64,000 nucleotides of DNA, taken from Sedimentisphaerales bacterium. GTDB taxonomy: Bacteria; Planctomycetota; Phycisphaerae; Sedimentisphaerales; SM23-30. The stretch is from assembly GCA_028281535.1 (NCBI GenBank), contig JANQJS010000012.1:107185-171184 (forward strand), written 5' to 3'. The position numbers were made by a program, and so were the translations under genes. A model generated the notes under the pieces. The model ran no database searches. It had not been told where the DNA came from and worked only from the letters and a program-made list of their open reading frames with translations. The stretch's first letter is position 1, and the number at the start of each line of letters is the position of its first letter. Below are positions 1,196 through 46,684 of the stretch, one piece after another.

Positions 1196-1867
1196 TTATA
1201 GTTGATGACGCTTACGCAACCAGCCAACCATTATCGTACCTAAAGACCCCAGTAATAATGCACCAGGAGCAGGGACGGTAGGAGGGCCTTGTGAGCCTTC
1301 GTCAAATTCATCTTCTGGATATTGAATTGGACTTAATTGAGGAGCAACATAGGTACGCATCGTTAAGTTGTCGATACCGATGCCATCAACACCTTCGCCA
1401 CCAAACCAAATGTTTGAGATAGCAGAAGAATATTCTTTGGAATAAGTTGATGAGCTTGTTGAGCTCGCTGAGAGTTCTTGTTGATCAATGATGTTGTTGT
1501 TCACATCATAGGCTGTGTACATAAAGTATGAGTTTGCACTTGGGTTAAATAAAGCCCAATCAAAGCTGATGGTATCAAACTGAGCGTTGGCAAAGTAAAT
1601 ATTTGCATAAGAATAGTTTGAATTCACCGTTGTCAGGAATTGGGTGTTGTTAAATGAGCTGTCTGAGCCAATTACGCCATAGCGAACTGTGACATCTGAG
1701 CCATAATGGTTGGTCATATATGCACTGGCATGAGAAGAGCTGTGATTGCCAGTGGGGTAGGCTGTAACGCTGCTGTGATCAAAATCAAATGTCGTGAAAC
1801 CAGCGAATGCGTTGCCAGCGAATGCAAAAATAACCAATGCTTGTACGAAGTAACGTAATTTTTTCAT
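1196..1867 (-). CDS. Secreted protein with PEP-CTERM sorting signal
   Basis: N-terminal signal MKKLRYFVQALVIFAFAGNAFA. C-terminal VPAPGALLLGSLGTIMVGWLRKRHQL is a P-A-P motif plus TM helix plus basic tail. Confidence 0.75.
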   Translation of the reverse strand: MKKLRYFVQALVIFAFAGNAFAGFTTFDFDHSSVTAYPTGNHSSSHASAYMTNHYGSDVTVRYGVIGSDSSFNNTQFLTTVNSNYSYANIYFANAQFDTISFDWALFNPSANSYFMYTAYDVNNNIIDQQELSASSTSSSTYSKEYSSAISNIWFGGEGVDGIGIDNLTMRTYVAPQLSPIQYPEDEFDEGSQGPPTVPAPGALLLGSLGTIMVGWLRKRHQL

Positions 1868-12265: not shown

Positions 12266-13279
12266 GTGAAAAATGGCATGAAATTATCTGAAATAGCAGA
12301 ACATCTAGGGGGGCAACTACAAGGTGATGGTGATTGTGCCATTACCTCCGTGGCCTCATTGGAACGCGCCTCTCAAAATGATATTTCCTTTTTGGCCGAT
12401 TCGAAATATATATCAAAATTAAAAGAATCGAATGCCGGGGCTGTTTTAGTTTCTCAAGACAATGATGTTGATGAGACTGGAAATTTCATTTTTGTTCAAG
12501 ATGTCAGTGATGCTTTGGGGACACTGTTGAACCTGTTTTCACCTGAGCCAGATCATGCTGAGAATGGCATTCATCAAACAGCGGTTGTTTCTTCGAAGGC
12601 GACCCTTGGCCAAGATGTTGCCATTGGTCCCAATGTGGTGATTGGGGCTCATGCCAAAATAGGTGATGGTTGTATTTTAAATAGCGGTGTGATCATCGGG
12701 CAAGGTGTTCAGCTTGGTAATCATTGTATTCTAGCACCGAATGTTGTTATTCAGCAGAATTGTCAATTAGGAAATAATGTCAAAGTGCATCCTAACAGCA
12801 CCATTGGTGCAGATGGCTTTGGCTATCGGTTTGTGGATGGCAAGCATCAAAAAATTCCTCATATCGGAATCGTTGTGATTGAGGATGATGTTGAAATTGG
12901 CGCAAATACTTGTATTGACAGGGCTAAGTTTGGTCAAACACGAATTGGCATTGGAACAAAGATTGATAATTTGGTCCAAATTGCTCATAATGTACAGATT
13001 GGTAATCACTGCGTTCTCGTATCCCAGGTAGGAATTGCTGGCAGCTGTCAATTAGGCAACTATGTGGTTCTCGGTGGTCAAACTGGTTTGAAAGACCATG
13101 TGAAAATAGGCGATGGTGTACAGGCGGGTGGCCAAAGTGGCATTATAAAAGATATTGCTGCTGGCATGATTGTGTGGGGCACGCCGGCTCGTGATATGAA
13201 TCAGGTTTTGCGTGAGCAAGCCATGGTAAAAAAGTTGCCGAAACTTATCCAGGATGTCAAAAAGATAAATAATAAATAG
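12266..13279 (+). CDS. lpxD: UDP-3-O-acylglucosamine N-acyltransferase
   Basis: N-terminal [15 protein letters not shown], long hexapeptide-repeat region with GADGFGY, and lipid A cluster context. Confidence 0.9.
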
Positions 13280-13285
13280 GGCATT

Positions 13286-14596: not shown

Positions 14597-14616
14597 TATA
14601 GAGAAAGTGAACCCTT

Positions 14617-15426: not shown

Positions 15427-15469
15427 TTCTTTGTAAAAGGAAATAGTTAAATAGAATTTAAATATAAGG

Positions 15470-16345: not shown

Positions 16346-16353
16346 AACATATC

Positions 16354-17400
16354 GTGTCAAAACTTAAAACCGCAGTGATTGGAGCTGGCAAAATGGGGCG
16401 GCTTCATACGCGTATTTATAGTCAAATGGACAATGTTGATTTAATTGGTGTTGTCGATGCTCAGATTGAAAAGGCCCAGGCTCTGGTGAGTGAATATGGA
16501 GGACAAGCCTATCAAGATCCTGCAGATATTCTAGATCAAGTTGATGCGGTGACCATTTCGGTTCCGACGGAATATCATGCAAAAGTTTCGCAGCCCTTTT
16601 TGGCCAAAGGCATCGGTGTGCTGGTTGAAAAACCCATTGCGTCCAGTTTAGAAGATGCCCGAAGTATGCTATCACTGGCACAAGAAAATGAATGCACCTT
16701 GCAAGTAGGATATTCTGAGCGATTTAATCCAGCTGTTCAGGCTATGCAGCGATTGGATTTTATCCCTCGGTTTATGGAGTCGCAGCGAATTTCTCCCTAC
16801 ACTTTTCGTTCGACGGATATTGGTGTGGTGTTAGATATGATGATTCATGATATTGATATCATCTTATCCCTCGCTCAAAGCCCAGTAAAAGATGTTTCCG
16901 CGGTAGGAGTTAATGTCTTAGGTGAGCATGAAGATATTGCTAACGTACGTTTAACCTTTGAAAGTGGATGCGTAGCGAATTTAACTGCGTCACGCCTGGC
17001 AATGAAAACCGATCGCAAAATCCGTGTTTTCAGTGAAGATGCATATTTGTCATTAGATTATTTTCGCAAAAGCGGTGTCGTTATTAGTAAGGCGGCGAAT
17101 ATCGATATGGTGCAATGGATTCGTCAGCAAACTGAAGATGGCCAGATCGATGTGGCAAATTCAAACTGGTCCGAGTTAGTTAATATTGAAAATCTAGATA
17201 TTGATGAACGCGAGCCGCTGCATTTAGAGCAGGAAGCATTTGTCAAAGCTGTTGCTGAAGGATCTCGTCCGCAAGTATCTGCTGAAGATGCGATTGCCGC
17301 GATGGAGCTAGCTCAACGTATTGTGAAAGTCATTGGTGAGCACCATTGGGATGGAAGTAATCCTGCTGCGATTAGTGCTGAGCACTGGCAAAAATCATAA
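16354..17400 (+). CDS. Gfo/Idh/MocA-family NAD(P)-dependent oxidoreductase (possible GnnA-like UDP-GlcNAc 3-dehydrogenase)
   Basis: N-terminal Rossmann KTAVIGAGKMG and the EKP motif (VLVEKPIA). Position immediately after lpxA. Confidence 0.75.
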   Translation: MSKLKTAVIGAGKMGRLHTRIYSQMDNVDLIGVVDAQIEKAQALVSEYGGQAYQDPADILDQVDAVTISVPTEYHAKVSQPFLAKGIGVLVEKPIASSLEDARSMLSLAQENECTLQVGYSERFNPAVQAMQRLDFIPRFMESQRISPYTFRSTDIGVVLDMMIHDIDIILSLAQSPVKDVSAVGVNVLGEHEDIANVRLTFESGCVANLTASRLAMKTDRKIRVFSEDAYLSLDYFRKSGVVISKAANIDMVQWIRQQTEDGQIDVANSNWSELVNIENLDIDEREPLHLEQEAFVKAVAEGSRPQVSAEDAIAAMELAQRIVKVIGEHHWDGSNPAAISAEHWQKS

Positions 17401-17430
17401 CATCAAATGAAAGATTTTAGATAAGTAATT

Positions 17431-18162
17431 ATGTCAAAATTAAATGTTAATATTGATCATGTTGCGACGATCCGCCAAGCACGCCAAGTGGATGAACCCA
17501 ATCCGGTGTGGGCGGCTGTCGAATGCGAATTGGCTGGAGCCAGTGGTGTGACGCTACATTTGCGTGAAGATCGCAGGCATATTCAGGATCGCGATGTTGA
17601 ATTGGTTCATGAAGTAACTGGGTTAAAATGCAATCTCGAAATTGCACTCACCGATCCAATGATTCGATTTGCACTTAAGCTCAAACCAGATATGGTAACA
17701 TTAGTTCCTGAAAAACGTGAAGAATTAACCACGGAAGGCGGGCTTGATTGTATCAAGCTATCGAAACGATTAGGCAATGCCGTTAAAAAATTGAATAAGG
17801 CAAGAATTAAAGTGTCTGCGTTTATTGTGCCTCAGGCAGATCAGATCCAGGCGAGTTGTGATACGGGGTGTGATGCGATTGAATTGCACACAGGCATGTA
17901 TGCTAATGCTAAAAGTGATCGGCAGATTGCTAAAACTCTACGTGATATTGAATCGGCGCGGGATTATGGTCTAGAGCAAGGGTTGGTCGTTCATGCTGGG
18001 CATGGATTAAATTACCGAAATATTGGTCCTGTAGCGGCACTTGGGGGATTGACAGATTTTAATATAGGCCATAGTATTGTCTCTAGATCGGTCTTTGTTG
18101 GACTCCGTCAAGCCGCAAAAGAGATGATCGCATTAATTGAAAAAAATAGTCCAAGTAATTGA
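17431..18162 (+). CDS. pdxJ: Pyridoxine 5'-phosphate synthase
   Basis: LNVNIDHVATIRQAR, HLREDRRHI, TTEGGLD, HAGHGLNY motifs. Confidence 0.92.
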   Translation: MSKLNVNIDHVATIRQARQVDEPNPVWAAVECELAGASGVTLHLREDRRHIQDRDVELVHEVTGLKCNLEIALTDPMIRFALKLKPDMVTLVPEKREELTTEGGLDCIKLSKRLGNAVKKLNKARIKVSAFIVPQADQIQASCDTGCDAIELHTGMYANAKSDRQIAKTLRDIESARDYGLEQGLVVHAGHGLNYRNIGPVAALGGLTDFNIGHSIVSRSVFVGLRQAAKEMIALIEKNSPSN

Positions 18163-23919: not shown

Positions 23920-23997
23920 GTCTCGCCAACCAGGCAGCGACCAACGGGCGCGGGTTACTTTCAGAATGGTCGCGGCGTTAAAAGTGACGAATGTCAC
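23920..23997. repeat. Family-2 structured repeat, copy E1
   Basis: GTCTCGCC-AACCAGGCA-GCGACC..loop..GGTCGC-GGCG, then hairpin GTGAC-GAAT-GTCAC. Aligns along its length with the copies at 40076 and 58829. Confidence 0.6.
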
Positions 23998-25922
23998 CTA
24001 GCGTCCATCCAGTCTTCCCAGAGACCTTGTTCTTTGAGTTTTTCTCGTTGTTTTTCAGAGCGGTAGAGTTTTTCTCGTTGTTTGCGGGCGACTTTATCAT
24101 TGTGTTTTTGAGTTTGATGGAAAATTTTCACTGCACCAGATTCTTGGATGGCTTGATCGCGTTTTTGTCGTGTTGCTTTGCGATAACGACAGATCTTTTT
24201 GCGATCAGCGTTTTCTAGTACATCATCTTTGAGGGACAAAAAGAATTGACATTCACCCGGATCTCCTTGCCGGCCAACACGTCCTGTGAGCTGTTCATCG
24301 AGACGTTGCAGGGGGGATCGGTCAGTGCCTAACAAAAACATACCACCTTGCTGTGCAATATTTTCACCTAGTAATATGTCGACGCCACGCCCGGCCATAT
24401 TGGTAATGATTGTAATACGATTGGCCTGACCGGCTTGTGCAATAATATCCGCTTCTCGCGTATGATTTTTTGCGTTAAGAACATCATGTTCAAGTTGACG
24501 TTCTGTGAGCATATTGCTGATGCGTTCTGAAGCAAGTACCGACCCAGTACCAATGAGAATCGGTCGTCCCGTTTTGTGAATTTCTTCTATTTTTTCGAGG
24601 ATCGCCAGGTTCTTTTGTTTCAGAGTGCGGTAAACCTGGTCGTTAAGAATTTTGCGTTGCTTGAGTTTGTTAGGAGGTATAGGTACAATCGATAAATCAT
24701 AAACCGATTTAAATTCTCGGGCGGAAACGGAGGCGCTACCTGTCATGCCGCTAAGTTTCGGGTACTTGCGAAAGAATGTTTGGAAGGTCGTGGATGCAGT
24801 CCCTTTTAATTCCGCTGAAGGCTGCAAGCCATTTCGTTGTTCGATGGATTGATGAATGCCATCAGGCAATTGACGTCCCGGAATGAGCCTGCCCGTTGAC
24901 TCATCAATCAAGACAACTTTGTCATCTTGGATCACATAGTGTTGATCTTTTTTATAAATGTATCGAGCGGCCAACGCACAGGTAATATAGCGTTCCCAGC
25001 GATGTCCACTTGGTAGTGTTCGTAATAAAGCACCGACATTTTTTCGGGATGCTGCTTTGCCTTCATCTTTAAGTTCAATACTGCGATCATCCTGCATAAT
25101 TCGGAAATGTTCGCCACGATTGAGTTGACCAGCAATTTCATCCGCTTTTTCGTATAAAGCAATTTGCCCAGAAACCCGTGTGCCACCCGCTAGTGAGATA
25201 GGACTACGTGCCTGGTCAATCAGAACGCTATCAATTTCATCGACAATGACAAAATCATATTTGGGGTTCAGTTCCGGTTGTTTGTCGGGACGAAGGATCG
25301 CATCCACTGAGCCAGTTTGCCTTTTGCGCACCGGTTCACGCAGTGAATCAAAGACAATATCGCGTGCCGTTGAGTAAACGACATGCTGTTGATACGCATT
25401 TATTTTTTCCTGCATTCCCGATTGTGGCATGATGAGCCCGACGGTCAAACCTAACCCTTTATAGAGCGGCTCCATCCAATTGGCATCACGCTGGGCAAGA
25501 TATTCATTGGCCGTGACAATATGACAACATCGATCAACCGCACTGGCATGATGCAAAAACGCCGAAAGGGGAGCCATGAGCGTTTTGCCTTCCCCCGTAT
25601 CCATCTCGGCAATGTGTCCTTCATAAAGTGCCAGGGTACCGATGAGCTGGCAGTCATAGTGACGCATATTAAGCATGCGTTTTGAAACCTCTCGTCCAAT
25701 GGCAAGAAGCTCAGGCAGGATAGGAGTAATTTTAGGTAGAGCTCGCGCCTGAAGTTTCAGCTCGGCAACTTTGTCACCCAGTTCACTGTCACTTAAGTTG
25801 GTCACCGACGATTCAAGTTTATTCGTCTGCTGGACAATTTTTTTATAATGATTCAGCTTATATGATTGCCATGGCTTATGGCAAAGCTGGTACAAAATGC
25901 TCATAAAGGTCTCCATTCGCAC
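23994..25922 (-). CDS. SecA-like ATPase paralog lacking the C-terminal translocation domains
   Basis: MRHYDCQLIG, EMDTGEGKTL, VDEIDSVLIDQARSP and GRVGRQGDPGECQFFLSL match SecA NBD1/PPXD/NBD2. Only ~75 aa (Lys/Arg/Glu-rich) follow NBD2, giving 642 aa versus ~850-900 aa typical. Start codon uncertain (M1/M3/M7). Confidence 0.8.
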   Translation of the reverse strand: MRMETFMSILYQLCHKPWQSYKLNHYKKIVQQTNKLESSVTNLSDSELGDKVAELKLQARALPKITPILPELLAIGREVSKRMLNMRHYDCQLIGTLALYEGHIAEMDTGEGKTLMAPLSAFLHHASAVDRCCHIVTANEYLAQRDANWMEPLYKGLGLTVGLIMPQSGMQEKINAYQQHVVYSTARDIVFDSLREPVRKRQTGSVDAILRPDKQPELNPKYDFVIVDEIDSVLIDQARSPISLAGGTRVSGQIALYEKADEIAGQLNRGEHFRIMQDDRSIELKDEGKAASRKNVGALLRTLPSGHRWERYITCALAARYIYKKDQHYVIQDDKVVLIDESTGRLIPGRQLPDGIHQSIEQRNGLQPSAELKGTASTTFQTFFRKYPKLSGMTGSASVSAREFKSVYDLSIVPIPPNKLKQRKILNDQVYRTLKQKNLAILEKIEEIHKTGRPILIGTGSVLASERISNMLTERQLEHDVLNAKNHTREADIIAQAGQANRITIITNMAGRGVDILLGENIAQQGGMFLLGTDRSPLQRLDEQLTGRVGRQGDPGECQFFLSLKDDVLENADRKKICRYRKATRQKRDQAIQESGAVKIFHQTQKHNDKVARKQREKLYRSEKQREKLKEQGLWEDWMDAR

Positions 25923-34663: not shown

Positions 34664-35437
34664 TTAGCGGAGGCGTTTTCTCCCAACAACGCAAGCTCCT
34701 AAAGCAAGCAGGCTACATGTTATCGGTTCAGGAATAGCAGTGGCTCCATGTGTCATGATATATTGAATTTCATTTTGTGATAAGGCATGGTCAAATATAG
34801 CCGCATCATCAATGGAACCTTTAAAAAATTTGCCTAAACCTGAAGAGTTTTGTCGTGCTCCTAAAAGAATTGGATTTGTACTTGAACCAATGTCGCCCAC
34901 GATTGGTGCAAATAACGTCGAATCCAACTGACCATCAATATAAATTTTCTTATACTGTCCATCAAATGTTGCTGCAATGTGATGCCAACGATTTAAAGAA
35001 ATATCCCCTGACGATAACATTCTATCTCCTGACCAGTTATCCCATAGACGCCCTACAAGAAAACGAACTTTTGATCCTTCTAGATCAATTTTGTAAGCAA
35101 ATTCTTTGACGAGAATTCCATGGCGATCAGAAACAAATCCTTCAGTATTAATCCAGGCGGATAAAGTAACTTGATTAAAATTTTCCAAGCTATCCACATC
35201 GCCCACAGCCACATGATCATTGACACCATCAAAATTAAGCCCTCCACCGATAGGGCTAGATATCCATGGGTTTCCAGAGAATCCCTGAAGACTCCCATCA
35301 AAATCTCCTATACTTTCATTTGCGACAACACTTGGAAATGATTCATCTAAAGCCCAGTGGGCAACTAAACTGGCTTGAACATGTACGTTAAAAAAACACA
35401 GGTTCAATATCAAAAATAATAAATGTATCCTCTTCAT
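34664..35437 (-). CDS. LamG/concanavalin-like lectin-domain protein with PEP-CTERM anchor
   Basis: The ATG ending at 35437 (GGGAGAG upstream) gives a signal peptide. LVAHWALDES...LNFDG..D.V.V...SAWI...RWHH.A..FDG...K.YIDG is LamG-like. C-terminal IPEPITCSLLALGACVVGRKRLR. Confidence 0.7.
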   Translation of the reverse strand: MKRIHLLFLILNLCFFNVHVQASLVAHWALDESFPSVVANESIGDFDGSLQGFSGNPWISSPIGGGLNFDGVNDHVAVGDVDSLENFNQVTLSAWINTEGFVSDRHGILVKEFAYKIDLEGSKVRFLVGRLWDNWSGDRMLSSGDISLNRWHHIAATFDGQYKKIYIDGQLDSTLFAPIVGDIGSSTNPILLGARQNSSGLGKFFKGSIDDAAIFDHALSQNEIQYIMTHGATAIPEPITCSLLALGACVVGRKRLR

Positions 35438-35556
35438 TCTGACTCTCCCAAAAATGTGATTAATAAAGACCATCTCTCTCGAACAAAAAATGCTCCTGGA
35501 ATTATAAACAATTCCAGGAGCATTACAACAAAAACTTATTTTCATTAAAGTAAGGT

Positions 35557-36822
35557 CTAAGTGGTCTCCTTTCGGTCAAACGTAACTAATTTTTTAACGA
35601 TCATGATAAAAAATCCTGTCAACAGAAGATTAATCGCCAGACTAAACATCGCAACGATCACAATGGGGCCCTGGATGCCATAGCTCAAACTGATTAGCAA
35701 GACACCCGCACCCACTTCGCCGCGAGGCCACATACCAATCGCAACAGCCAAACGTTCGCGCCAATGAGCTTCTTTACGATAGCAAAACGCTGGGAACATT
35801 TTTCCTAAATTACTGAGTACCGTTACGGCCAATACATGCCAGGCAATGGTTGACCAGGGTGGCATCGGCTGCTTTGAGGAAACCATTTCCGATTCAACAT
35901 TAGCGACTTCAGGTGAAACGGCCACTGTTTGAGACGGTTCGCTCGCCGTGGTGTCTCCAAACAAATAAGGCAGTGACAAACCTACTAATACCATAAAGAC
36001 GGCTGAAACAATCGTTGAGACGCGCTGTTCGGTCGGTGTCTCTAAAATTGAATGATGTCCATCATTTGCTTCATTACCTGTATCTTTGTTCTCTGGGATT
36101 TTCAATACGCATCCCAGAACAAACGCCGGTAATAAAATCTCAATATGTATAGGGACAGTATCATCAATCAATTTTGACGACTTATAAATGATCTCGCAGA
36201 TAATCGTGATGATCACCGAATAGATCATGACCCAATTCCATGTTACAGGTAGCGGGATTTTGTGCAGCCATTTCCAGGCAACCCAAAGCAACGCAAACAT
36301 GACGATAACAATAATACCCAACTGCCAGGCAAGTCCTACCATGAGCATTTTCAATGGAATCATCAACAGGACGGTGTCCAGGTCATCAAAGATCGCCAAA
36401 ATTCGCGCTTTCTTAAATAACCAGGTTGCACTCAATCCTGCTGCAGCTAACATGGAAAACAATACGCCGGCTGAGGTGGGAGCCGCAAACCTGGAAGACA
36501 GTAAGGATTCCTTCCAAGCCTGAAGCGACCCCCACGTCTCAGAGGGCAGCATCACAAAAACAAAATATAGGGCAACAAAAATCCAGGGGAATGCCGCGGC
36601 AGTCATTGCCACGACATAATCCCATCCATATTGTCGCAGGTTCGATTTATCAATCTCAAACTCAAAGCCAACATGAATCATAATATAGGCCAATGCGACC
36701 ATACTAAGAATTCGAATTAAATAGGCGATCGTTTCATAAGAATCACCTAAGCTGCTGGCTAAAAATTGAGAACCAACTAATCCTATAATTAACAAAATGG
36801 TATATAAAATAACTTTATTCAT
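35557..36822 (-). CDS. Cation:proton antiporter (Na+/H+ exchanger superfamily)
   Basis: ~11 TM helices with HVGFEFEID resembling the CPA (v)G(l)Ef(d) motif. Confidence 0.6.
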   Translation of the reverse strand: MNKVILYTILLIIGLVGSQFLASSLGDSYETIAYLIRILSMVALAYIMIHVGFEFEIDKSNLRQYGWDYVVAMTAAAFPWIFVALYFVFVMLPSETWGSLQAWKESLLSSRFAAPTSAGVLFSMLAAAGLSATWLFKKARILAIFDDLDTVLLMIPLKMLMVGLAWQLGIIVIVMFALLWVAWKWLHKIPLPVTWNWVMIYSVIITIICEIIYKSSKLIDDTVPIHIEILLPAFVLGCVLKIPENKDTGNEANDGHHSILETPTEQRVSTIVSAVFMVLVGLSLPYLFGDTTASEPSQTVAVSPEVANVESEMVSSKQPMPPWSTIAWHVLAVTVLSNLGKMFPAFCYRKEAHWRERLAVAIGMWPRGEVGAGVLLISLSYGIQGPIVIVAMFSLAINLLLTGFFIMIVKKLVTFDRKETT

Positions 36823-36881
36823 CGCTTCACCTATTATGCCTGTCTAGAAATCATCCTGATTGCCAAAGCATTGATCGAACG

Positions 36882-37841
36882 CTAGCCCACGTCAGGCCGA
36901 TTAAATTGTTTCGGAGAAAATGTAAAACCAAACGGCTTGATCGCAAGCAAGCTACATCCAGAATTTCTGACAACTCGCTCAGCCGTACTACCCATTAAGA
37001 CATATTTTAATTTGGTTTGTCCTCGCGTACCAAGCACTACCAAATCAATGTCTTTCTCTTTGATATAATGACTGATACCTTCAGCATAATTTTGATGCTC
37101 ATAAAGATCACAGGTCACTTCAAGATCCTCAATTTGATTCTTAAAAGTTTTTAAGCAATTATTCAGCTTAACTTTTAATAAATCCTTGTATTGCTGCTGA
37201 TAGGTTGGGTCACTCGAAGAGGTCGCCGACATATAGTGCAAATGGTTCCATGGTCCATAAAAGACATGAACTAAATGCAAGTGTGCTTGATCCTGCTTGG
37301 CGATATGGATCGCTTGCTGAATCGCCAATAGTGAATTATCAGAAAAGTCAATGCATGCAACAACACGCTTGAATTCTACTGTATGCTCAGGACGAACCAA
37401 CATGACTTTAGCCGGTATTTTACGCACACATTTTGTCACCAGAGCACCAACATTGCCACCTGGCTTTGTCGATGCGCCGTACATACCTAGGACCAACAAA
37501 TCTGCTGAAACTTCATGGACTTTCTGTAACAACTCATCAATCGGAGTGCCGATCCGAACATCCACTTGAACATCGTCTGGCATCTCATTTCGTGCCATGA
37601 CGGTCAGTACTTCATTTTCCAATTCAGCGACTTCATGTTCATGGATCTCTTCTTTAAAATGATCCAGGTCACTCGATTTATGAATGACCGAATGGACTTC
37701 TTGCACGAGCCGTTCATCAACCACATGGACAACATAAAGACGGGCTTTATTCCACCTGGCTAAACGCGCGGCCTGCGCCAGAGCATGCTCGGAATAGTTC
37801 GAAAAATCCATTCCTACGACTATTGATTGTAAACGGTTCAT
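36882..37841 (-). CDS. Tandem universal stress protein (two UspA domains)
   Basis: Two repeats of the pattern ..VV..DFS..S..A...A...A......L.L.HV.. ending in G..G......GS....V. Confidence 0.8.
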   Translation of the reverse strand: MNRLQSIVVGMDFSNYSEHALAQAARLARWNKARLYVVHVVDERLVQEVHSVIHKSSDLDHFKEEIHEHEVAELENEVLTVMARNEMPDDVQVDVRIGTPIDELLQKVHEVSADLLVLGMYGASTKPGGNVGALVTKCVRKIPAKVMLVRPEHTVEFKRVVACIDFSDNSLLAIQQAIHIAKQDQAHLHLVHVFYGPWNHLHYMSATSSSDPTYQQQYKDLLKVKLNNCLKTFKNQIEDLEVTCDLYEHQNYAEGISHYIKEKDIDLVVLGTRGQTKLKYVLMGSTAERVVRNSGCSLLAIKPFGFTFSPKQFNRPDVG

Positions 37842-37900
37842 GACAAACTCCTATCTTCGACAATTAAGTGTCGATCAAAAAAACGGTTAATCACCAAACA

Positions 37901-39031
37901 TCAATTTAAACGATATCGTAATAAGCATCCGACGCCGCCAAGATTGAGCAGGGCATCGCTTTGTAAAACTACTTCAATATGGCAACCATCTCGTTGGGCC
38001 AATGCGACCATCTCCTGCTTCAAGTCACTTTCTTGAAGCGAGCCACCTACGCAATGCTTGCAATGCGTTATGGGGCTTTCAGTGGCTAGAAGCACGTTGC
38101 AGCCAGAGCATCGATACCCATGAGGCGGTTGAAAACTATTCTCTATAATGAGCATGTCGACATTGCCTTGTTGCAGTGCTTCGAGCGTGTCATTCACACC
38201 CGCTGCACCTAAACCGGCCGTATGCACTTCTTGTAAAAGAAGGTCGACAGCTGCTAAAGATTCTTTCTCTTCATGCTCAATGAACGATGAAAGCGATGAA
38301 GCCACTACCTCAGATATGTGTTCTTTGCCTGAAGCAGAGACAATATCAACCAGTTTCTCCTGCAAATGCTTAGGCAATAACTTCTGGATCTTTGACGTTA
38401 TCGCAGGATTGCCTGCAAGGACAATGTGCGAATGACCGCCTTGCCGAACGAGATCTTCTAAGATCTTTACCTTTTCTTTAAAGAAACGATTCGATCGTTC
38501 TTTGCGATGATTCTGGTAATGTTCCTTAGACCATTTCTGACGAATATCATTTCGCAGTTCGGGAATCTTGGACCATAATTCTTTGGTAATCGATCCCAAA
38601 GATACTTCAACAATGCGTCCACTTTCTTGGGTCGATAACATAATAATGAAACGATCATAATTGTCTTTCAACTCTACCAAATGGTATATATGTGGCTTTG
38701 TGTCGATAGCAAATTCATTTGGTAGCGGTACCTCGAATTGCAGTGCCAATTCGAATGGGTGTTTGCCGCCGCGATGAAATAAAACAACACCTTGTGATGT
38801 TTCATCAATTTCTTTATTGATGAAACGCTGAACTCTATCGAGTGATTCTTTTAGAACACTTAACTCCTTGGAAGAATAGCTCTTCTTCAGTGTAATCAAA
38901 CGTTCTTTAAGATATTTTTTATAATGATGCTCTCCAGAGCCAACATGTATATAACAACTGATAATCGGTGCCTCCGATTCTTCGAGAACAGCTAAAGTTC
39001 GAATATGTTTTTCCAAATTTTTCGTTTCCAT
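37901..39031 (-). CDS. Bacterial archaeo-eukaryotic release factor (eRF1/Pelota)-like protein with zinc-ribbon insert, no GGQ
   Basis: By hand alignment to human eRF1: [23 protein letters not shown] vs [49 protein letters not shown] vs [48 protein letters not shown] vs LEIVTDKS..GFGGIGGILRYRV. CSGC..CKHC is inserted in the C domain. Confidence 0.75.
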   Translation of the reverse strand: [376 protein letters not shown]

Positions 39032-39932
39032 GGCAAATCCTTTCCTTTTAAGTAAAAAACTTTACGATCAGATGTGTTGTCACAAATCAGCGCAAGCAGC
39101 GCGTACGTCTTAGTGAGTCCATTGACCGAAATTTGATAAGTTGGCTGAGAGGGGGGTAGCTAAGCTAGCTACAGAAGGAGGTTCAGGTCACTTAACGCCA
39201 CTCGGTATGTCATCCCGGAGCGAGATGGACAACAACAATAAAAGTAAAATTGTTTCATGAGTGACTACCTGATTAATAAATAATAACTCTGCTCTTACAT
39301 AAAATTCCGGGCAGAACACATCCACATTCTGTCCTGCCCGGCGAGTTCGGGAATAGGTTTGAGGGCAGATATTCAAAACTATCCGTAATAAATTGTTCGA
39401 TTTTTATAGTCTCTAATTCATACACAGAATCTAAAAAACCATTCGGTTTTATTCGCGTTTAAATCTCAACTTTCTTTGTCGAGATAACTTCAGCGACCTG
39501 TCAAAGACATCGTGATATTTGTTATGTTAGCATTGCGATGTCCGTACCAAGATTACGCCCCAAAAAATCCCGGGTTCGAAAAAATCGGTCAAATCGTCAT
39601 CAAAAAAGGTCGATTTTTTTTAACCCAATAATAACGATAACCTCAACGATAATATATATATGAGTAAAAATAAGCGATCAAAGATAGAGCTGTTTATCTA
39701 CCTAAAGTGCCACCCAAAACATTCAGACGACATGCACACATAAGTTATTTCGACTGAAGTCCCAAAGGGACGAATTAGAGAAATCTAAAACCTACAATTA
39801 ATTAAATACGATTGGATAAAAGTAAGAACCAAAAAATTCAAAATGTAGAAAACTTAAAAGTTCACGACAGAAAAACAAACCATTACTCAATGAAGCAATA
39901 AGCAACTGAGTTTCTTTTTATTTTTACCACCT

Positions 39933-39960
39933 GTTGACTTTGCATAATTATATGATATAA
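39933..39960 (+). promoter_or_regulatory. Sigma70-type promoter with extended -10 for the ast operon leader
   Basis: TTGACT (39933-39938), 16-nt spacer, TGaTATAAT (39952-39960), with a T-rich UP-like tract upstream. Predicted TSS is near 39967, 210 nt before the ATG at 40177. Confidence 0.55.
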
Positions 39961-40075
39961 TTATAAAGTATAAGGTCATGGGCTGAACCGACTTTCAACG
40001 TCCCTCCGAAACCCAATTCTCTTTAAAAACGTAATAATAAATGTATGCGCATAATGAAGACGTATAAACGCTAAC

Positions 40076-40156
40076 GGTCTCGCCAACCAAGTAGCGACCA
40101 ACGGGAGCGAGTTCCCAACCAAAAGGTCGCGGCGTAATTTATACAGGCGAACGCCT
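40076..40156. repeat. Family-2 structured repeat, copy E2 (inside the ast leader)
   Basis: GTCTCGCC-AACCAAGTA-GCGACC..GGGA/TCCC..GGTCGC-GGCG, then hairpin CAGGC-GAAC-GCCTG (40143-40156). Confidence 0.6.
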
Positions 40157-40176
40157 GAAAACACGATAATTATATT

Positions 40177-41391
40177 ATGCAGAACCACTTAAAACATCTT
40201 GAATGGATCGATAGCCAACAGGAGCGAATGCTGACCCTTCTAACTGATTGGACCAGCGTCAATTCCCACAGCTATAATCTTATAGGGCTTAAATCCATGG
40301 CCCAGAAACTCGCCGATGAATTTAAGGTTCTGGATGGTCAAATGAAGATGTTAGACCTGAAACCATATAAAATCATTGATCAAGAGGGCAATCCTAAAGA
40401 GCAGCAATTAGGTCAGGCCATCTCGATCACTAAACGAGAAGATGCAGACAAATCTGTTTTTCTAGGCATCCACATGGACACCGTTTTCAAAGAAAATGAT
40501 TCATTCCAATCAAGCAAAATGATCGATGAGGATAAATTAAATGGCCCAGGCGTCATCGATGCCAAAGGCGGACTTGCCGTCATGCTCATCGCACTGCAAG
40601 CCTTTGAGCAATCAGAAGTCGCCAAAAATATCGGCTGGGAAATACTCATCAATCCAGATGAAGAAATCGCTTCTCCTGGTTCAGCACCGTTATTCCAACA
40701 AGCAGCCAAACGAAACCAACTAGGTTTTGTTTACGAACCCGCCTTACCAAACGGTTCACTGATCAGCAGTCGAAAAGGCTCAGGAAATTTCACTATCGTC
40801 GCACGAGGCAGAGCTTCTCATGCTGGACGTGATTTCTATTCAGGGCGCAGCGCTATCCTGGCAATCAGCGAATTCATCATTGAACTAAATAAACTTAATG
40901 ATCAACAAAAGGAAATCACCGTAAACATCGGTGAAATCAAAGGCGGCCAAGCCGTTAATGTTGTTCCCGATTTGGCGATTGCAAAATTTAATATTCGGTT
41001 TAAAAATATCGATGATCAAAAATCAATCGAACAAAAACTAAACCAACTGATTGAAACACATAATCAAAAAGAAGGATTTCAATTTGAACTTTCGGGAAGC
41101 TTTTTGAGTCCACCAAAAATGTTAACAGAAAAATTACAAACATTTATGAATCAAATAACAGATTGCGGCAAAGAACTTGGATTGGACCTAACCTACCAAT
41201 CAAGTGGCGGCGTCTGCGATGGCAATAAACTGGCCGCAGCCGGTTTGCCAACCATCGATACCTTAGGCCCTGTTGGAGAGAATATGCATAACGCAAACGA
41301 AACACTCTTCATCAATAGCCTGACCGAGCGTGCGAAGCTGACGTGCCTTTTTCTACTGAAATTGGCAACAAACAACGAGTTTAAATGTTAA
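40177..41391 (+). CDS. M20-family metallopeptidase (CPG2/DapE/ArgE-like amidohydrolase); candidate succinylglutamate desuccinylase substitute
   Basis: HMDTVF, GPGVIDAKGG and NPDEEIASPGS are M20 metal and catalytic motifs. First gene of the ast cluster. Confidence 0.8.
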   Translation: MQNHLKHLEWIDSQQERMLTLLTDWTSVNSHSYNLIGLKSMAQKLADEFKVLDGQMKMLDLKPYKIIDQEGNPKEQQLGQAISITKREDADKSVFLGIHMDTVFKENDSFQSSKMIDEDKLNGPGVIDAKGGLAVMLIALQAFEQSEVAKNIGWEILINPDEEIASPGSAPLFQQAAKRNQLGFVYEPALPNGSLISSRKGSGNFTIVARGRASHAGRDFYSGRSAILAISEFIIELNKLNDQQKEITVNIGEIKGGQAVNVVPDLAIAKFNIRFKNIDDQKSIEQKLNQLIETHNQKEGFQFELSGSFLSPPKMLTEKLQTFMNQITDCGKELGLDLTYQSSGGVCDGNKLAAAGLPTIDTLGPVGENMHNANETLFINSLTERAKLTCLFLLKLATNNEFKC

Positions 41392-41431
41392 ACTTAAACA
41401 ATGACAATTTAAGCAGATAGAGAGAGAATTT

Positions 41432-42817
41432 ATGAAATCTTTAGCAGCTGAAAGCTTTATGTCAGACCCGAGGATTGGGCAAGCCAGGCAATTAATACTG
41501 GATAGCCTGGCTGACGCTCAGAAATCGCTTATTGGCGTAAAACCCGCCGATCCTGAGCGAAAACAAACCTATGAACAAGCCATCAAAGAAATGTGTCAAT
41601 TGCGTGGCGGTGGCTTGTTCTATCCTTATCTTGGCAGCGGTCTGGGAAATGGTGCCCTGGTCGAGCTTGCTGATGGCAGCGTCAAGTACGATCTCATCAG
41701 CGGCATCGGCGTCCATTGGATGGGCCACAGCCATCCTGACATGGTAAAGGCCTCTTTCGATGCCGCATTGCAAGATACCATTATGCAGGGCAACCTTCAG
41801 CAGAATACAGATTCATTTGAACTCATCGATCGCTTTGTCAAACTTGCACAAAAAAATGGCTCCAAGCTGGAGCATTGCTATCTATCCACCAGTGGAGCAA
41901 TGGCAAACGAAAATGCACTAAAAATTGCATTACAAAAAAATCATCCACGTCAACGTGTCTTAGCTTTTTCACGATGCTTTGCCGGACGAACGCTGGCCGT
42001 ATCGCAAATTACAGATAACGCCGCCTACCGCCAAGGACTACCATCGGTGATCGATGTCGATTACGTCCCATTCTTCAATCCAGACCAACCAGAAAAAAGT
42101 ATCGAACATTCCGTCAAAGTTCTAAAGCGACTTATCGAGCGTTACCCAGATCAGCATGCCGTCATGTGTATGGAACTCATCCAAGGAGAGGGGGGCTACT
42201 ATTCTGGTGATCGCGATTTCTTTATCGCTCTAATCGACGTTCTCAAAGAAAATAATATCGCTGTGATGTTTGATGAAATTCAAACTTTTGGACGCACAAC
42301 CCAGCCGTTTGCTTTCCAACATTTTAGTTTAGATGAATACGCAGATATAGTAACGGTTGGTAAAATGTCGCAGGTCTGTGCCACAATTTACGTAGACAAT
42401 TACAAACCAAAACCGGGTCTGATTAGCCAAACCTTTACGGGCGGCACAGGCGCTATTTGGGCAGCAAACGCTATTTTGAAAGAATTGAATGAAGGACATA
42501 TTTTTGGCGATGATGGTAAAATCGTTCAAGTTCACAATGCCTTTGTCAGCGAATTTGAAAAAATCAATGAGAAACATCCTGACCTGATTTCAGGCCCCTT
42601 TGGCATTGGTGGTATGATTGCTTTCACACCTTTTGGCGGTGATGGCGCCAAAGTCAAAGAATTCATCACAACTTTATTTAATGAAGGCGTGATTGGATTC
42701 CCGTGTGGTACGTCGCCACGCCGCGTGCGATTTTTACCGCCTATTGGATCAATCACAGAAGACGATATCAAAAAATCTTGTGAAATTATTGAAGCAATTC
42801 TTTTGAAAATTGCATAA
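41432..42817 (+). CDS. Class-III PLP aminotransferase, divergent AstC/ArgD-like
   Basis: STSGAMANENALKIA, FAGRT, FDEIQTFGRT and VTVGKMSQ (PLP lysine context). 461 aa. Sits immediately upstream of astA. Confidence 0.72.
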   Translation: MKSLAAESFMSDPRIGQARQLILDSLADAQKSLIGVKPADPERKQTYEQAIKEMCQLRGGGLFYPYLGSGLGNGALVELADGSVKYDLISGIGVHWMGHSHPDMVKASFDAALQDTIMQGNLQQNTDSFELIDRFVKLAQKNGSKLEHCYLSTSGAMANENALKIALQKNHPRQRVLAFSRCFAGRTLAVSQITDNAAYRQGLPSVIDVDYVPFFNPDQPEKSIEHSVKVLKRLIERYPDQHAVMCMELIQGEGGYYSGDRDFFIALIDVLKENNIAVMFDEIQTFGRTTQPFAFQHFSLDEYADIVTVGKMSQVCATIYVDNYKPKPGLISQTFTGGTGAIWAANAILKELNEGHIFGDDGKIVQVHNAFVSEFEKINEKHPDLISGPFGIGGMIAFTPFGGDGAKVKEFITTLFNEGVIGFPCGTSPRRVRFLPPIGSITEDDIKKSCEIIEAILLKIA

Positions 42818-42831
42818 TTGGAAAAAAGAAA

Positions 42832-43860
42832 ATGAATATTGTTCGACCTATTACAATAGAAGATTTAGATCAACTCTACGAGCTGGCATTGCTCCGTGGT
42901 GTTGGCCTCACGTCGCTGCCCAAGGATAAAAAGCAGCTGCGTAAAAAAATTCTCAGTGCTCAGCGTGGATTCAATTTGACAGAAGAAGATGATCCTGCAG
43001 GCGAACAATATTTATTTGTACTGGAAGATGTGGAGAAACAGAAACTCGTTGGGGTAAGTGGTATTCATTCGAAAGTGGGTGGCTTCGAGCCATTTTATAC
43101 TTACCAGATTGAAGATTCGGTTCATGAATCGAAATCTCTAAAAGTTTCCCGGAAAATCCCTACTTTGCATCTGGTCGTTGACCATGATGGGCCGAGCGAA
43201 GTTGGCACATTGTTTCTACATCCTGATTATCGTCAAGGCGGCAATGGCCGATTTCTTTCACTAACACGATTTTTGTATATGGCGCAATGTCCGGATTATT
43301 TTGATGAATTAGTTATCGCAGAAATCCGCGGCGTCATAGATGAAAATGGAGGTTCGCCCTTCTGGGATGCTTTGGGGAGTCATTTCTTTGTTCTCGACTT
43401 TAATACCGCAGATGAACTCAGTGCGGTGGATAAAAAATTCATCGCCGACTTGATGCCCAAGCATCCCATTTATATTCCAACATTGCCACAAGCCGCACAA
43501 GATGTCATTGGCGAACCCAATGACAAAAGCAGGCCAGCAATGAAAATTCTGGAAAAAGAAGGCTTTGAATATTGCCATAGTGTGGATATATTTGAAGCTG
43601 GCCCAACGGTGAGCTGCCAATTAGAAAATATTCGAACCATCAAAGAAAGTAAAGTCATGAAAATCGGTGAAATTTCTGATACTGAAATTAATTCTGACAT
43701 TTATATGATTAGCAATAATTCTAAAGAATTTCGTGCATGCATGGGAAATATTGAAAAATTAGGAAGTAGTAAAGTGCGAATAACTTCGCAAGTTGCTCAA
43801 GCCTTAAAATTAAACATTGGGGATGAATGCCGATTTGTTCTACTGCGCCCAAACGGTTAA
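42832..43860 (+). CDS. astA: Arginine N-succinyltransferase
   Basis: MNIVRPITIEDLDQLYELA..GVGLTSLP and the overall AstA-like length and pattern. Followed by astD and astB. Confidence 0.82.
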   Translation: MNIVRPITIEDLDQLYELALLRGVGLTSLPKDKKQLRKKILSAQRGFNLTEEDDPAGEQYLFVLEDVEKQKLVGVSGIHSKVGGFEPFYTYQIEDSVHESKSLKVSRKIPTLHLVVDHDGPSEVGTLFLHPDYRQGGNGRFLSLTRFLYMAQCPDYFDELVIAEIRGVIDENGGSPFWDALGSHFFVLDFNTADELSAVDKKFIADLMPKHPIYIPTLPQAAQDVIGEPNDKSRPAMKILEKEGFEYCHSVDIFEAGPTVSCQLENIRTIKESKVMKIGEISDTEINSDIYMISNNSKEFRACMGNIEKLGSSKVRITSQVAQALKLNIGDECRFVLLRPNG

Positions 43861-43874
43861 TTAAAGGAAATGGC

Positions 43875-45344
43875 ATGTCAGAAAATATCCATTATGTAAA
43901 TAATCAGTGGCTATCCGGTGGGACTGAAACGATTGTGTCTCTCAATCCTGCAACCAATCAGCCTGTTTGGACGGGTCTTGCCGCGGATAAGGATTTCGTT
44001 GATCAAGCTGTTGAGGCTGCCTGCCAGGCTTTGCCAGCATGGTCCAATCTGGATTTGGAAAAACGAATTGGCTACCTCAAAGCTTACGAAGAAGCTTTGC
44101 GTTCAATCCAAAATGAAATGGTAGAGACGATTAGTAAAGAAAATGGCAAACCTCTTTGGGAAGCTAAAACAGAAGTTCAAGCAATGCTGGGAAAAATTGA
44201 TTTGACGATCAAAGCTTATCAAGATCGCACAAACCATCATGTCAATCAATCGAGTAATACTACCCAGGCTCTTCGATACAAACCTCATGGTATCATTGGA
44301 ATCATCGGCCCATTTAATTTGCCGGGACATATAACTCATGGTCAAATTATTCCTGCTTTGTTGGCGGGCAATACGGTCGTTTTTAAGCCAAGTGAGCTTG
44401 CTCCTTTAGTTGGCCAAAAGTTGATTGAGCTTTGGGAGCAAGTTGGTCTTCCAGCTGGTGTTCTCAATATGGTACAGGGGGGCGGGGAAACAGGGAAAGC
44501 ATTATGTCAGCATTCTAATTTGAATGGCTTATTTTTTACTGGAAGTTTTAAGGTTGGCGTTGAATTAAATAAAGCGTTTGCATCTGATCCTGGGAAAATT
44601 TTGGCATTGGAGATGGGCGGCAACAATCCTTTAGTTGTTCATCAGGCGGTAGATTTGGATGCCGCGGCATATTTGGTGATGCAATCAGCGTTTATTACTT
44701 CTGGCCAGCGATGCACTTGTGCTCGACGACTTATTGTTCCCGAAGGTAAAGAAGGTGATTTACTGATTGATCATGTTGTTAATTGGACGAAAAAAATTCA
44801 AGTTGGACCTTATACGCAAGATCCTGAACCTTTCATGGGACCTGTTGTAACATCTCAAGTAGCGCAACGATTATTGGAAGCACAAGCTAGCTTGCAAGAT
44901 CGAGGTGGAAAATCAATTATTGAAATGTCACCTATTTTAGAGCATGGTTCATTTTTGTCTCCAGGTTTGATAGATGTCACTGAGATCTGCGATCGGCAAG
45001 ATGAAGAGATTTTTGGCCCATTACTACAAATTGTCCGAGTAAAAAATTATGATACTGCAATCGAAGAAGCAAATAATACAAGTTATGGACTTTCTGCTGG
45101 TTTGATTAGCAATAATGCCAGTTTATATAATGAATTTCGTCAGCGAGTCAATGCTGGTTTGGTAAACTGGAATCGTCAAATTACTGGTGCGAGCGGAGCA
45201 CTTCCATTTGGTGGTATTGGGCAGAGTGGGAATCATCGACCTTGTGGGTATTTTACTGTCGATTTATGCTGCTATCCTGTAGGTTCCATTGAACAGGATG
45301 GCTTGAGTTTACCTGAAAAACTTACGCCAGGGATGGATGGATGA
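43875..45344 (+). CDS. astD: Succinylglutamate-semialdehyde dehydrogenase
   Basis: Aldehyde dehydrogenase motifs (FKPSELAP, LEMGGNNP, SGQRCTCARR, EEIFGPLL). ATG at 43875; the track ORF start at 43827 overlaps astA. Confidence 0.88.
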   Translation: MSENIHYVNNQWLSGGTETIVSLNPATNQPVWTGLAADKDFVDQAVEAACQALPAWSNLDLEKRIGYLKAYEEALRSIQNEMVETISKENGKPLWEAKTEVQAMLGKIDLTIKAYQDRTNHHVNQSSNTTQALRYKPHGIIGIIGPFNLPGHITHGQIIPALLAGNTVVFKPSELAPLVGQKLIELWEQVGLPAGVLNMVQGGGETGKALCQHSNLNGLFFTGSFKVGVELNKAFASDPGKILALEMGGNNPLVVHQAVDLDAAAYLVMQSAFITSGQRCTCARRLIVPEGKEGDLLIDHVVNWTKKIQVGPYTQDPEPFMGPVVTSQVAQRLLEAQASLQDRGGKSIIEMSPILEHGSFLSPGLIDVTEICDRQDEEIFGPLLQIVRVKNYDTAIEEANNTSYGLSAGLISNNASLYNEFRQRVNAGLVNWNRQITGASGALPFGGIGQSGNHRPCGYFTVDLCCYPVGSIEQDGLSLPEKLTPGMDG

Positions 45345-46684
45345 GTGGTGGATTTGAAGTCAATTTCGATGGCTTAGTTGGGCCAACCTATCATTATGGC
45401 GGATTGTCTTATGGCAATATCGCCAGTAAAAAACATTCCGGCCAAATTTCAAATCCAAAACAAGCCGCTCTTCAGGGATTAGAAAAAATGAAATTCCTGC
45501 ATGACCTAGGACTGAAGCAAGCTTTCTTGCCACCTCAGCAGCGACCTGATTTACGATATCTAAACGCTTTAGGTTATAGTGGGCAGCTAAAAAAAATCAT
45601 CGAAAAAATTGCCAAAGAAGATATGGGCTTTTTGTCAGCATGTTTTAGTGCTTCGAATATGTGGACTGCGAATGCTGCAACGATTTCTCCTAGTAAGGAT
45701 TGTGAGAATGGGAAAATTCATATTACCCCGGCAAATTTAGCGACACAATTGCACCGTTCAATGGAAAAAGATTGGACATCTCGGTTATTAAAATCAGTTT
45801 TTAGTGATTTAACTATTTTTCAACATCATGTTGCTCTTCCTAGCGAGCGTTATTTTAGTGACGAAGGTGCTGCTAATCATATTCGATTATGTCGAGATTA
45901 TGATTCTGAAGGGATTGAAGTGTTTGTTTTTGGGCAAGATAACCATTCTAAATTACCAGCAACAAAATATCCCATACGACAATCTTTACAGGCTTCTGAG
46001 TGTATCGCTCGGTCCCATCAGTTGAATCGAGATCGTACACTATTTGTTCAACAAAACCCAGAGGCAATTAATGCAGGGGTTTTTCATAATGATGTTATTT
46101 CCGTTGGTAATTTAAACGTTTTCTTTTATCACGAGAAAGCATTTGTTGAAACTCAGAAAGCAGTATCCGCTATACGGAAAACTTTTGAAGATCATTGTCA
46201 GGCTCATTTATATTTAATTGAAGTCAAAGAAAATCACGTTTCACTAGCAGACGCTGTAGCGTCTTATTTGTTTAATAGTCAGCTAATATCAGTGACTGAT
46301 GAAAAAATGGCATTGATTTGCCCAAGTGATTGTGAAAATTTTAGTCACATTAAAGATCTTTTGAATGAAATTTTGGAGAAAGATAATCCTATCCAAGAAG
46401 TTCATTATGTTAATGTCCGGCAAAGTATGCAAAATGGCGGTGGGCCAGCTTGCTTACGTTTGAGAGTTGTCTTAAATGATAGGCAGCTAGTGGGATGTCA
46501 TTCTGGAGTTCTTTTCGATGAAATCGTTTACGACAAATTAAAGATGTGGGTCAAACAATATTATCGAGACAAGTTACATCTTGATGATCTTGCCGACCCT
46601 AAATTATGGGAAGAAAATTGTCAGGCATTTAGTGTGTTAAGTGATGTCTTAAAGCTAGAACCATCACTTTACAATTCATATTAA
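45341..46684 (+). CDS. astB: N-succinylarginine dihydrolase
   Basis: EVNFDGLVGPTYHYGGLSYGNIAS, FHNDVI and C-terminal NGGGPACLRLRV are AstB hallmarks. A 4-nt overlap (ATGA) with astD suggests translational coupling. Confidence 0.92.
   Translation: MSGGFEVNFDGLVGPTYHYGGLSYGNIASKKHSGQISNPKQAALQGLEKMKFLHDLGLKQAFLPPQQRPDLRYLNALGYSGQLKKIIEKIAKEDMGFLSACFSASNMWTANAATISPSKDCENGKIHITPANLATQLHRSMEKDWTSRLLKSVFSDLTIFQHHVALPSERYFSDEGAANHIRLCRDYDSEGIEVFVFGQDNHSKLPATKYPIRQSLQASECIARSHQLNRDRTLFVQQNPEAINAGVFHNDVISVGNLNVFFYHEKAFVETQKAVSAIRKTFEDHCQAHLYLIEVKENHVSLADAVASYLFNSQLISVTDEKMALICPSDCENFSHIKDLLNEILEKDNPIQEVHYVNVRQSMQNGGGPACLRLRVVLNDRQLVGCHSGVLFDEIVYDKLKMWVKQYYRDKLHLDDLADPKLWEENCQAFSVLSDVLKLEPSLYNSY

Follow-up and report, generated by a model that had tools for sequence, protein, structure and literature searches.

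What might a protein built like the archaeal and eukaryotic release factors do in a bacterium, where it coexists with RF1 and RF2, if it lacks the GGQ motif of those factors? The question is raised by an open reading frame (ORF) at 37901..39031 on the minus strand of a 64,000-nucleotide (nt) stretch of contig JANQJS010000012.1 from a Sedimentisphaerales bacterium, here called the window. The ORF starts with ATG, has a ribosome-binding site (AAGGAAAGGA) just 5' of it and encodes a protein of 376 amino acids (aa), whose N-terminus aligns with the consensus of several hundred homologues. We determined how the protein folds in a predicted model, to which family it belongs, which motifs it lacks and how it is conserved, as well as the anatomy of its operon and the statistics of its gene neighbourhood. 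We consider the protein likely to be a ribosome hibernation factor of the Balon type, descended in bacteria from archaeal aRF1 and belonging to baeRF-1 family 10.

Hibernation of ribosomes by Balon was discovered only recently and is widespread; its solved examples all come from Psychrobacter, mycobacteria and Synechocystis. The aeRF1 homology of such bacterial proteins, their zinc ribbon and their association with HPF were catalogued in 2019 (PMC6514570), and the family's function was established in 2024 (PMC10901736) and extended to cyanobacteria in 2026. A sequence-only reading of the window had recognized a bacterial eRF1/Pelota-like protein but believed families of this kind to lack experimental characterization, which is outdated, as Msmeg1130, Rv2629 and Psychrobacter Balon have been reported on ribosomes as hibernation factors (PMC10901736). 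The window protein is a sound but largely expected addition to the Balon family. What we did not find in the accessible text of the family literature is the retention of the ribbon in about half of the clade, its repeated loss and the embedding of the genes in islands of cation-homeostasis and universal stress protein (USP) genes; these are incremental refinements.

Fold and family of the protein

The protein passed the Pfam model baeRF_family10 (PF18854) with 62.6 bits against a gathering cutoff of 27.1 (E 6.5e-17, residues 113-243), and it scored 25.6 bits on eRF1_3, marginally under the cutoff of 25.8, which bears out its proposed place in the aeRF1 superfamily. Msmeg1130, a structurally proven Balon, reached 126.5 bits on baeRF_family10 when tested with residues 102-374 as reconstructed from its PDB alignment; thus, both belong to the same Pfam family. 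Msmeg1130 (8v9j) is also the best PDB sequence match of the window protein (E 2.6e-6), followed by Pelota (E 2.8e-5) and eRF1, and the top NCBIfam matches are the three models of ribosome hibernation factors, MSMEG_1130, Rv2629 and AOC03_06830, with E values of 1.8e-13 and 4.2e-10 among them. HMMER aligned residues 110-375 to residues 123-412 of eRF1 (E 0.009 with the single sequence, E 1e-5 with the profile), the C-terminal segment standing opposite FGGIGGILRYRV. The likeness to eRF1 therefore lies where it had been drawn by hand, in colinear M and C domains, with a ribbon at the position of the mini-domain and a C-terminal segment opposite GGIGGILRYRV.

Tests against the other branches of the superfamily were negative. 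The release factor model TIGR03676 gave 37.4 bits against a cutoff of 234.7, and the Pelota model TIGR00111 gave 22.2 bits against 177.65. A Vms1-like role, suggested earlier, found no support in the acVLRF1 model (E 0.078 and 13.6 bits, the cutoff being 27.1).

An AlphaFold2 (AF2) model built on 82 homologues has a predicted local distance difference test score (pLDDT) of 85.4 and a predicted template modelling score of 0.82, and shows three domains in the order N-M-C, the M domain being RNase-H-like and the C domain of the Pelota/eRF1_3 type. In Foldseek comparisons with the PDB, ribosome-bound Msmeg1130 (8v9l/8v9j) came first, matching over the whole chain with template modelling (TM) scores of 0.77-0.81 and root-mean-square deviations of 3.6-3.8 A. 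Next to it stand Rv2629 (8v9k) with TM 0.70-0.72 and P. urativorans Balon (8rd8/8rdw/8rdv) with TM 0.66-0.70, whereas eRF1 and aRF1 reach about 0.5 and Pelota 0.25-0.47; with alignments of 380-430 columns, Foldseek assigned a probability of 1.00 to the matches with Balon, aRF1, eRF1 and Pelota alike. The comparison of an AlphaFold-type model with eRF1 and Pelota, proposed as a check on the sequence, thus returned an aeRF1 fold whose nearest neighbour is Balon on the ribosome. In the predicted model, the window protein combines an aeRF1 fold lacking GGQ and NIKS with ribosome-bound Balon as its closest structural relative. It resembles the Balons of P. urativorans, mycobacteria (Msmeg1130, Rv2629) and Synechocystis in these three domains, in the missing motifs and in the full-length match in the ribosome-bound domain arrangement.

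The clade around the protein is large. An exhaustive profile search returned 4,273 cluster representatives at E <= 1e-3 and 624 at E <= 1e-30, so that, as a lower bound, at least 624 clusters at 50% identity belong to it, from Planctomycetota, Acidobacteriota, Myxococcota, Chloroflexota, Gemmatimonadota and others. Conservation was measured on the 82 top homologues. Among these 82 members, the window protein is the most divergent: its mean identity is 45% (median 53%), and it deviates 14 times (median 4) at 100 highly conserved columns. Some genomes carry more than one copy, as is the case for Balon: the pairs L060/L061, L016/L070 and L074/L080 of the related loci described below each come as two loci in one metagenome-assembled genome (MAG). 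The genes of the clade are currently annotated as "host attachment protein", "rubrerythrin" or "hypothetical", the second of these owing to the four-Cys module, and they should be called Balon-like hibernation factors.

From the solved complexes of homologous Balons, we infer that under stress the protein would enter the ribosomal A site without reading mRNA, with its N domain at the decoding centre. The loop of the M domain and the adjoining basic helix (W167, H171, Y172, Q173, H175 and R176) would lie beside the peptidyl-transferase centre without releasing the peptide, and the ribosome would be parked and protected. 

Alternatively, the protein might be a non-catalytic rescue or recycling factor like Pelota/Dom34, which would occupy the A site when ribosomes are stalled or vacant and, instead of protecting them over the long term, promote the dissociation of subunits or the eviction of factors. 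We regard this as unlikely, though it fares best among the rivals. The two proteins share a superfamily, the window protein shows no catalytic motif, Pelota is the second-best PDB sequence match (E 1.1e-7 when the family profile is used), and a 2026 preprint speculates on a Pelota-like reactivation role for Balon itself (10.64898/2026.07.03.736309). However, the structure is far less similar to Pelota than to Balon, for which TM reaches 0.81, and the neighbours of the gene and its relatives are hibernation and stress genes (HPF, USP) rather than rescue genes. Moreover, no ABCE1 or Hbs1 partner is known from bacteria.

The M-domain loop and the zinc ribbon

The tip loop of the M domain (residues 156-167; 38531..38566, minus strand) occupies the position of the eRF1 GGQ loop and probably that of the "lasso" loop of Balon, which has been described as surrounding A2602. 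It is the sole segment of the model with pLDDT below 50, and this predicted flexibility makes it a candidate equivalent of the lasso. The loop reads NDIRQKW and has no GGQ, as had been noticed at the outset, and neither NIKS nor an equivalent stop-codon motif is present in the sequence. The accompanying claim that the Gln of the motif alone was kept does not stand: HMMER places W167, not Q165, opposite eRF1 Q185, so the hand alignment was shifted by two residues. Q165 occurs in 1 of the 82 homologues, being unique to the window sequence, where the consensus is R or H, and its apparent retention is therefore a coincidence. In place of the eRF1 GGQ, the family has (R/H)EW and the window protein QKW; the family consensus of the loop is VG(R/H)EW, within a longer motif beginning RPELRxRVG(R/H), from which the window protein departs at I156, D162, R164, Q165 and K166. 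In having its own conserved loop motif the clade also differs from the solved Balons.

The Gln that the family does conserve is Q173, found in 79 of the 82 close homologues and placed by the AF2 model at the start of a helix rather than at the loop tip. It is followed by the conserved basic residues R176, R177 and R179, and Burroughs and Aravind took such a basic helix after the loop as a sign of insertion into rRNA or the A site (PMC6514570). The same authors flagged family 10 as possibly catalytic on the strength of a well-conserved Gln, and the protein could on these grounds be a specialized peptidyl-tRNA hydrolase that acts in release or rescue through a non-GGQ loop with Q173 or another residue, all the more as its C domain and ribbon are aRF1-like. 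We find this very unlikely. More distant clade members (P0245, P0269, P0305 and P0340) have R, E or D in place of Q173, and this patchy conservation argues against catalysis, as does the binding of Msmeg1130, itself of family 10, to the A site in the role of a hibernation factor. With P. urativorans Balon bound, the peptidyl-transferase centre is reported to stay inert (PMC10901736). Peptidyl-tRNA hydrolase activity, which the sequence-only reading had doubted, thus seems doubtful still, as GGQ is missing. The window protein agrees with the baeRF-1 clade of the 2019 analysis in its family 10 assignment and in the zinc ribbon or two-strand insert, HPF association and conserved basic helix described there, but our data point away from the catalysis considered possible there.

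The second distinctive feature, a zinc ribbon with four Cys, lies in the C (Pelota/eRF1_3) domain (residues 304-335; 38027..38122, minus strand; C308, C311, C324 and C327). Its CSGC...CKHC pattern is aligned by HMMER to the mini-domain segment of eRF1, where the ribbon had first been placed, and the model gives it pLDDT values of 81-90. All four Cys are found in 82 of 82 top homologues. Searched against the PDB, the family profile finds archaeal aRF1 best (E 3e-11), and the ribbon Cys align with CSVC...CPKC in 3ir9 (M. mazei aRF1) and with the corresponding part of 4af1 (H. salinarum aRF1). The likeness to aRF1 thus extends to a CxxC...CxxC ribbon at the identical insertion site and to the terminal GG(V/I)G..LRY, whereas the missing GGQ and NIKS, a different N domain, a whole-chain TM of about 0.5 and the bacterial host set the two apart. 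According to the 2019 analysis, a zinc ribbon is inserted in the Pelota domain of classical aeRF-1, and many baeRF-1 families have a two-strand insert at the same site (PMC6514570). The ribbon is accordingly not a novel insert, as it had first appeared, but the ancestral ribbon of aRF1, often lost in close relatives.

The extent of this loss became apparent from the exhaustive profile search, which corrected the impression, given by the 82 top homologues, that the ribbon is invariant in the family. Of the top 150 representatives, 109 are full-length, and in 53 of these a clean deletion of about 33 residues has removed the ribbon; one of the 53 is P0249, which is 46% identical to the window protein. 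These ribbon-less close relatives (P0249, P0260, P0265, P0269, P0273 and about 48 more) share 38-46% identity and keep no residual beta-hairpin. On a rough neighbour-joining tree, the trait requires at least 21 changes and the root is ribbon-bearing. Taken together, the aRF1 match and the ribbon-bearing root point to an ancestral ribbon that was lost repeatedly, and its absence from about half of the closest cluster representatives suggests that it is accessory to the core function. Since about half of the clade still carries the aRF1 ribbon, the clade documents an intermediate between aRF1 and Balon.

At the C-domain site of this 33-residue insertion, Msmeg1130 has a Cys-free insert. The beta-hairpin inserted in the C domain of Balon has been described as contacting EF-Tu(GDP), and it is Cys-free where the window protein has a four-Cys ribbon. 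If, as we infer, that hairpin is the two-strand insert of the baeRF-1 proteins, the ribbon would sit where Balon touches EF-Tu, a contact predicted from position only. Because of the shared insertion site, the ribbon may provide an accessory contact to EF-Tu or the ribosome, outside the core activity of the protein. If Balon needs its hairpin for the EF-Tu contact, the ribbon-less forms may act without EF-Tu.

Besides the catalysis considered possible for family 10, several points weigh against a Balon-type function. Identity to the solved Balons is just 11-19%. The equivalog cutoffs of the three NCBIfam hibernation factor models are far off, with 50.3 bits against 480 for MSMEG_1130, 39.3 against 320 for Rv2629 and 21.8 against 330 for AOC03_06830; the protein appears to be homologous to the Balons yet to form a separate subfamily. 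In the C domain and ribbon, the family profile prefers archaeal aRF1 over Balon, so the clade seems nearer to aRF1 there and could use this domain differently. Given five deviations in the loop and its place as the most divergent of the 82 members, the activity of the window protein could be altered. Finally, the HP motif that Balon has at the decoding centre and its bL27 trap were not located in the protein; the published text, in its accessible part, gives no residue numbers for them.

The gene string and its neighbourhood in relatives

The baeRF gene stands first in a string on the minus strand, as the sequence-only reading had it. It is followed after 59 nt by a gene for a tandem USP (36882..37841; 319 aa, UspE-like), and after another 59 nt by a gene for a polytopic membrane protein of 421 aa, a divergent cation:proton antiporter (CPA)-type protein (35557..36822). 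The two spacers (37842-37900 and 36823-36881) each end in a ribosome-binding site. We considered whether they are copies of one element and rejected this, as their sequences are unrelated. The USP protein matches Pfam Usp in two stretches (167.8 bits, E 2.7e-49), hence tandem, and NCBIfam UspE with E 2.5e-17 and 62.8 bits, under the equivalog cutoff of 227. The 421-aa protein has no Pfam match even at E up to 10, PF00999 Na_H_Exchanger included, and none in NCBIfam. Among its 5,648 homologues, the best of which are 60-66% identical, source databases name sodium:proton antiporters or KefB; a few carry PF00999, and a local match shares the motif GM(W/I)PRGEVG with a PF00999 protein. As this support is indirect, "CPA-like" seems the apt description rather than demonstrated PF00999 member. 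The closest named relatives of the antiporter, as well as the loci that hold the closest USPs, belong to Planctomycetota/Phycisphaerae. PADLOC found no anti-phage defence match for any of the three proteins.

An intrinsic-terminator-like hairpin (35489..35524, minus strand), with a 16-base-pair (bp) stem, a 4-nt loop and a T-run, lies 33 nt past the antiporter stop codon. Given the short spacers ending in ribosome-binding sites and this terminator after the third gene, the three genes look like one transcription unit with the hairpin marking its end. They would accordingly be co-transcribed as one stress operon, bringing the putative hibernation factor under common control with the tandem USP and the antiporter. 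The hairpin falls inside the longest-ORF extension of the next gene, a LamG/PEP-CTERM gene whose longest ORF (34664-35545, minus strand) overlaps it. In Logan, that gene is called on the same contig (L081) with 257 aa and a later start; its true start is therefore probably the Met of MKRIHLL... near 35437.

Upstream of the baeRF gene, the non-coding stretch first estimated at about 0.9 kb or more proved to measure 1,145 nt (39032..40176, GC 0.376). This divergent intergenic region separates the gene from the operon of an M20 peptidase and arginine succinyltransferase (AST) genes, and it is the window's longest internal gap without an ORF of at least 100 aa, holding only short ORFs. An Rfam scan of this region of about 1.1 kb at permissive E values gave only chance-level matches and no riboswitch or small RNA family. 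A stable hairpin at 39307..39341 (minus strand), about 275 nt upstream of the start codon and with a 12-bp stem followed by AAUUUUAU, lies in the putative leader; the 76-nt stretch around it (39285-39360) has a folding energy of -25.4 kcal/mol and a z score of -3.15 against shuffles. It is possibly a leader attenuator, or else the terminator of an upstream transcript or the 3' end of an unannotated small one. Scans for sigma-70 promoters and terminators were overall not enriched over shuffles, and the only individually outstanding elements are the terminator with the 16-bp stem and a strong TTGACT-16-TATAAT sigma-70-like site at 39934-39961, which faces the plus-strand M20/AST operon. A sigma-54-like element (TGGTACGGACATCGCA; 39534-39549, minus strand), with GG and GC at consensus spacing, is found about 500 nt upstream of the baeRF gene; it deserves note given the sigma-54 response regulator upstream in 17 of the 80 related loci described next. 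We dropped this site as promoter evidence, since such matches number 39 in the window and 36 in shuffles.

To what extent is the gene string shared by relatives? We collected 80 clade loci from GTDB representative genomes of Acidobacteriota, Planctomycetota, Myxococcota, Chloroflexota, Gemmatimonadota, KSB1, Eisenbacteria and others, clustered their ORFs and counted the neighbours. The proposed conservation of the neighbourhood holds for one partner and fails for the other: a tandem USP recurs within 6 kb in 19 of the 80 loci, being the next same-strand ORF within 300 nt in 7, whereas homologues of the 421-aa antiporter are found in none of them (tblastn). Three antiporter homologues on long contigs have unrelated neighbours, with no linkage to either baeRF or USP genes. 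We therefore rejected a conserved trio of baeRF, USP and antiporter.

The most frequent neighbour is TerC (23 of 80 loci), followed, beside the USP, by a divergent LysR regulator and a type-II P-type ATPase (18 each), a sigma-54 response regulator (17) and a histidine kinase (13). An Ion_trans channel is found in 9 loci; M50+CBS proteases, M48/HtpX proteases and DUF302 proteins in 8 each (14 loci for the two protease types combined); and CNNM/CorC, Na_H_Exchanger and Na_Ca_ex in 6 each. HPF/RaiA was likewise found in 6 loci, in 4 of which it is the first ORF upstream on the same strand. Of the 80 loci, 49 have one or more cation transporters or channels within 6 kb. Thus, the link to USP recurs, the link to HPF fits published Balon, the cation-transport theme is strong and the exact trio is lineage specific.

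Both the stress-operon context and the HPF/RaiA genes beside relatives of the window gene are features shared with Balon, whose genes have been reported in stress operons with RaiA as their commonest neighbour (PMC10901736). In M. tuberculosis, Rv2629 is co-transcribed with Rv2628-Rv2631 as part of the DosR dormancy regulon, which also holds the USPs Rv2623 and Rv1996, the P-type ATPase ctpF and Rv0079 (PMC3177182). In other respects the neighbours differ: those of the clade are mainly cation transporters, USP, LysR and sigma-54 two-component regulators, whereas those published for Balon include Hsp20, OsmC/Y, HdeD, MarC/EmrB and RtcB. Neither the cation-transporter association nor the repeated loss of the ribbon is mentioned in the accessible text of the 2019 analysis (PMC6514570).

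If functional, the association with cation transporters would link ribosome dormancy to ion homeostasis. One could go further and propose that the ribbon clade is the arm that acts on translation in a conserved island of cation-homeostasis and stress genes, comprising TerC, type-II P-type ATPase, Na+/H+ and Na+/Ca2+ exchangers, CNNM/CorC, an ion channel, USP and HtpX/M50 proteases; that the inducing signal of hibernation is ionic stress (Mg2+, K+, pH or salt) rather than starvation; and that the ribbon is a metal- or redox-sensitive switch gating engagement with EF-Tu or the ribosome, a control that ribbon-less lineages would have lost. This extended proposal is speculative, and we rate its chances as low. 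A string of such genes stands out in loci L005, L006, L007, L008 and L012, from Cytophagia, KSB1 and unclassified MAGs: M48/HtpX, Na_H_Exchanger, c15 (185 aa, unknown), Na_Ca_ex, TerC, CNNM, baeRF, M50+CBS and Ion_trans, in this order. It looks like a mobile ion-homeostasis island.

The same cation transporters and channels in 49 of 80 neighbourhoods, together with the "rubrerythrin" annotation of some homologues, might suggest that the protein is not primarily a ribosome ligand but a metal- or redox-sensing regulator, controlling adjacent ion-transport genes or proteins through a rubredoxin-like four-Cys knuckle, but this is highly improbable, given that about half of the close relatives do without the ribbon but keep the remainder of the protein conserved, that conservation is highest at the positions which in aeRF1 and Balon face the ribosome, and that Pfam finds no DNA-binding or membrane-associated domain.

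Other features of the window

The plus-strand operon beyond the intergenic region (40177-46684) encodes the AST pathway, with Aminotran_3/AstC, AstA, Aldedh/AstD and AstB. At its head stands an M20 peptidase in place of a canonical AstE; the M20 enzyme may stand in for the succinylglutamate desuccinylase. On the minus strand at 23994-25922, a SecA-like protein of 642 aa combines DEAD, PP-bind and P-loop domains. As it is far shorter than the roughly 900 aa of a typical SecA, this suggests a truncated or accessory SecA.

GC skew is strongly positive (0.15-0.30) over 1-18000, a run of plus-strand genes, falls to about zero near 24-30 kb and is negative to about 42 kb, which probably reflects gene-strand bias. 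The only sigma-54 site in the window with zero mismatches to the consensus (TGGCACCGGCTTTGCA) is found at 1929-1944 on the minus strand, 62 nt upstream of an ORF at 1196..1867 on the same strand, and this perfect site suggests that the organism uses RpoN-dependent promoters.

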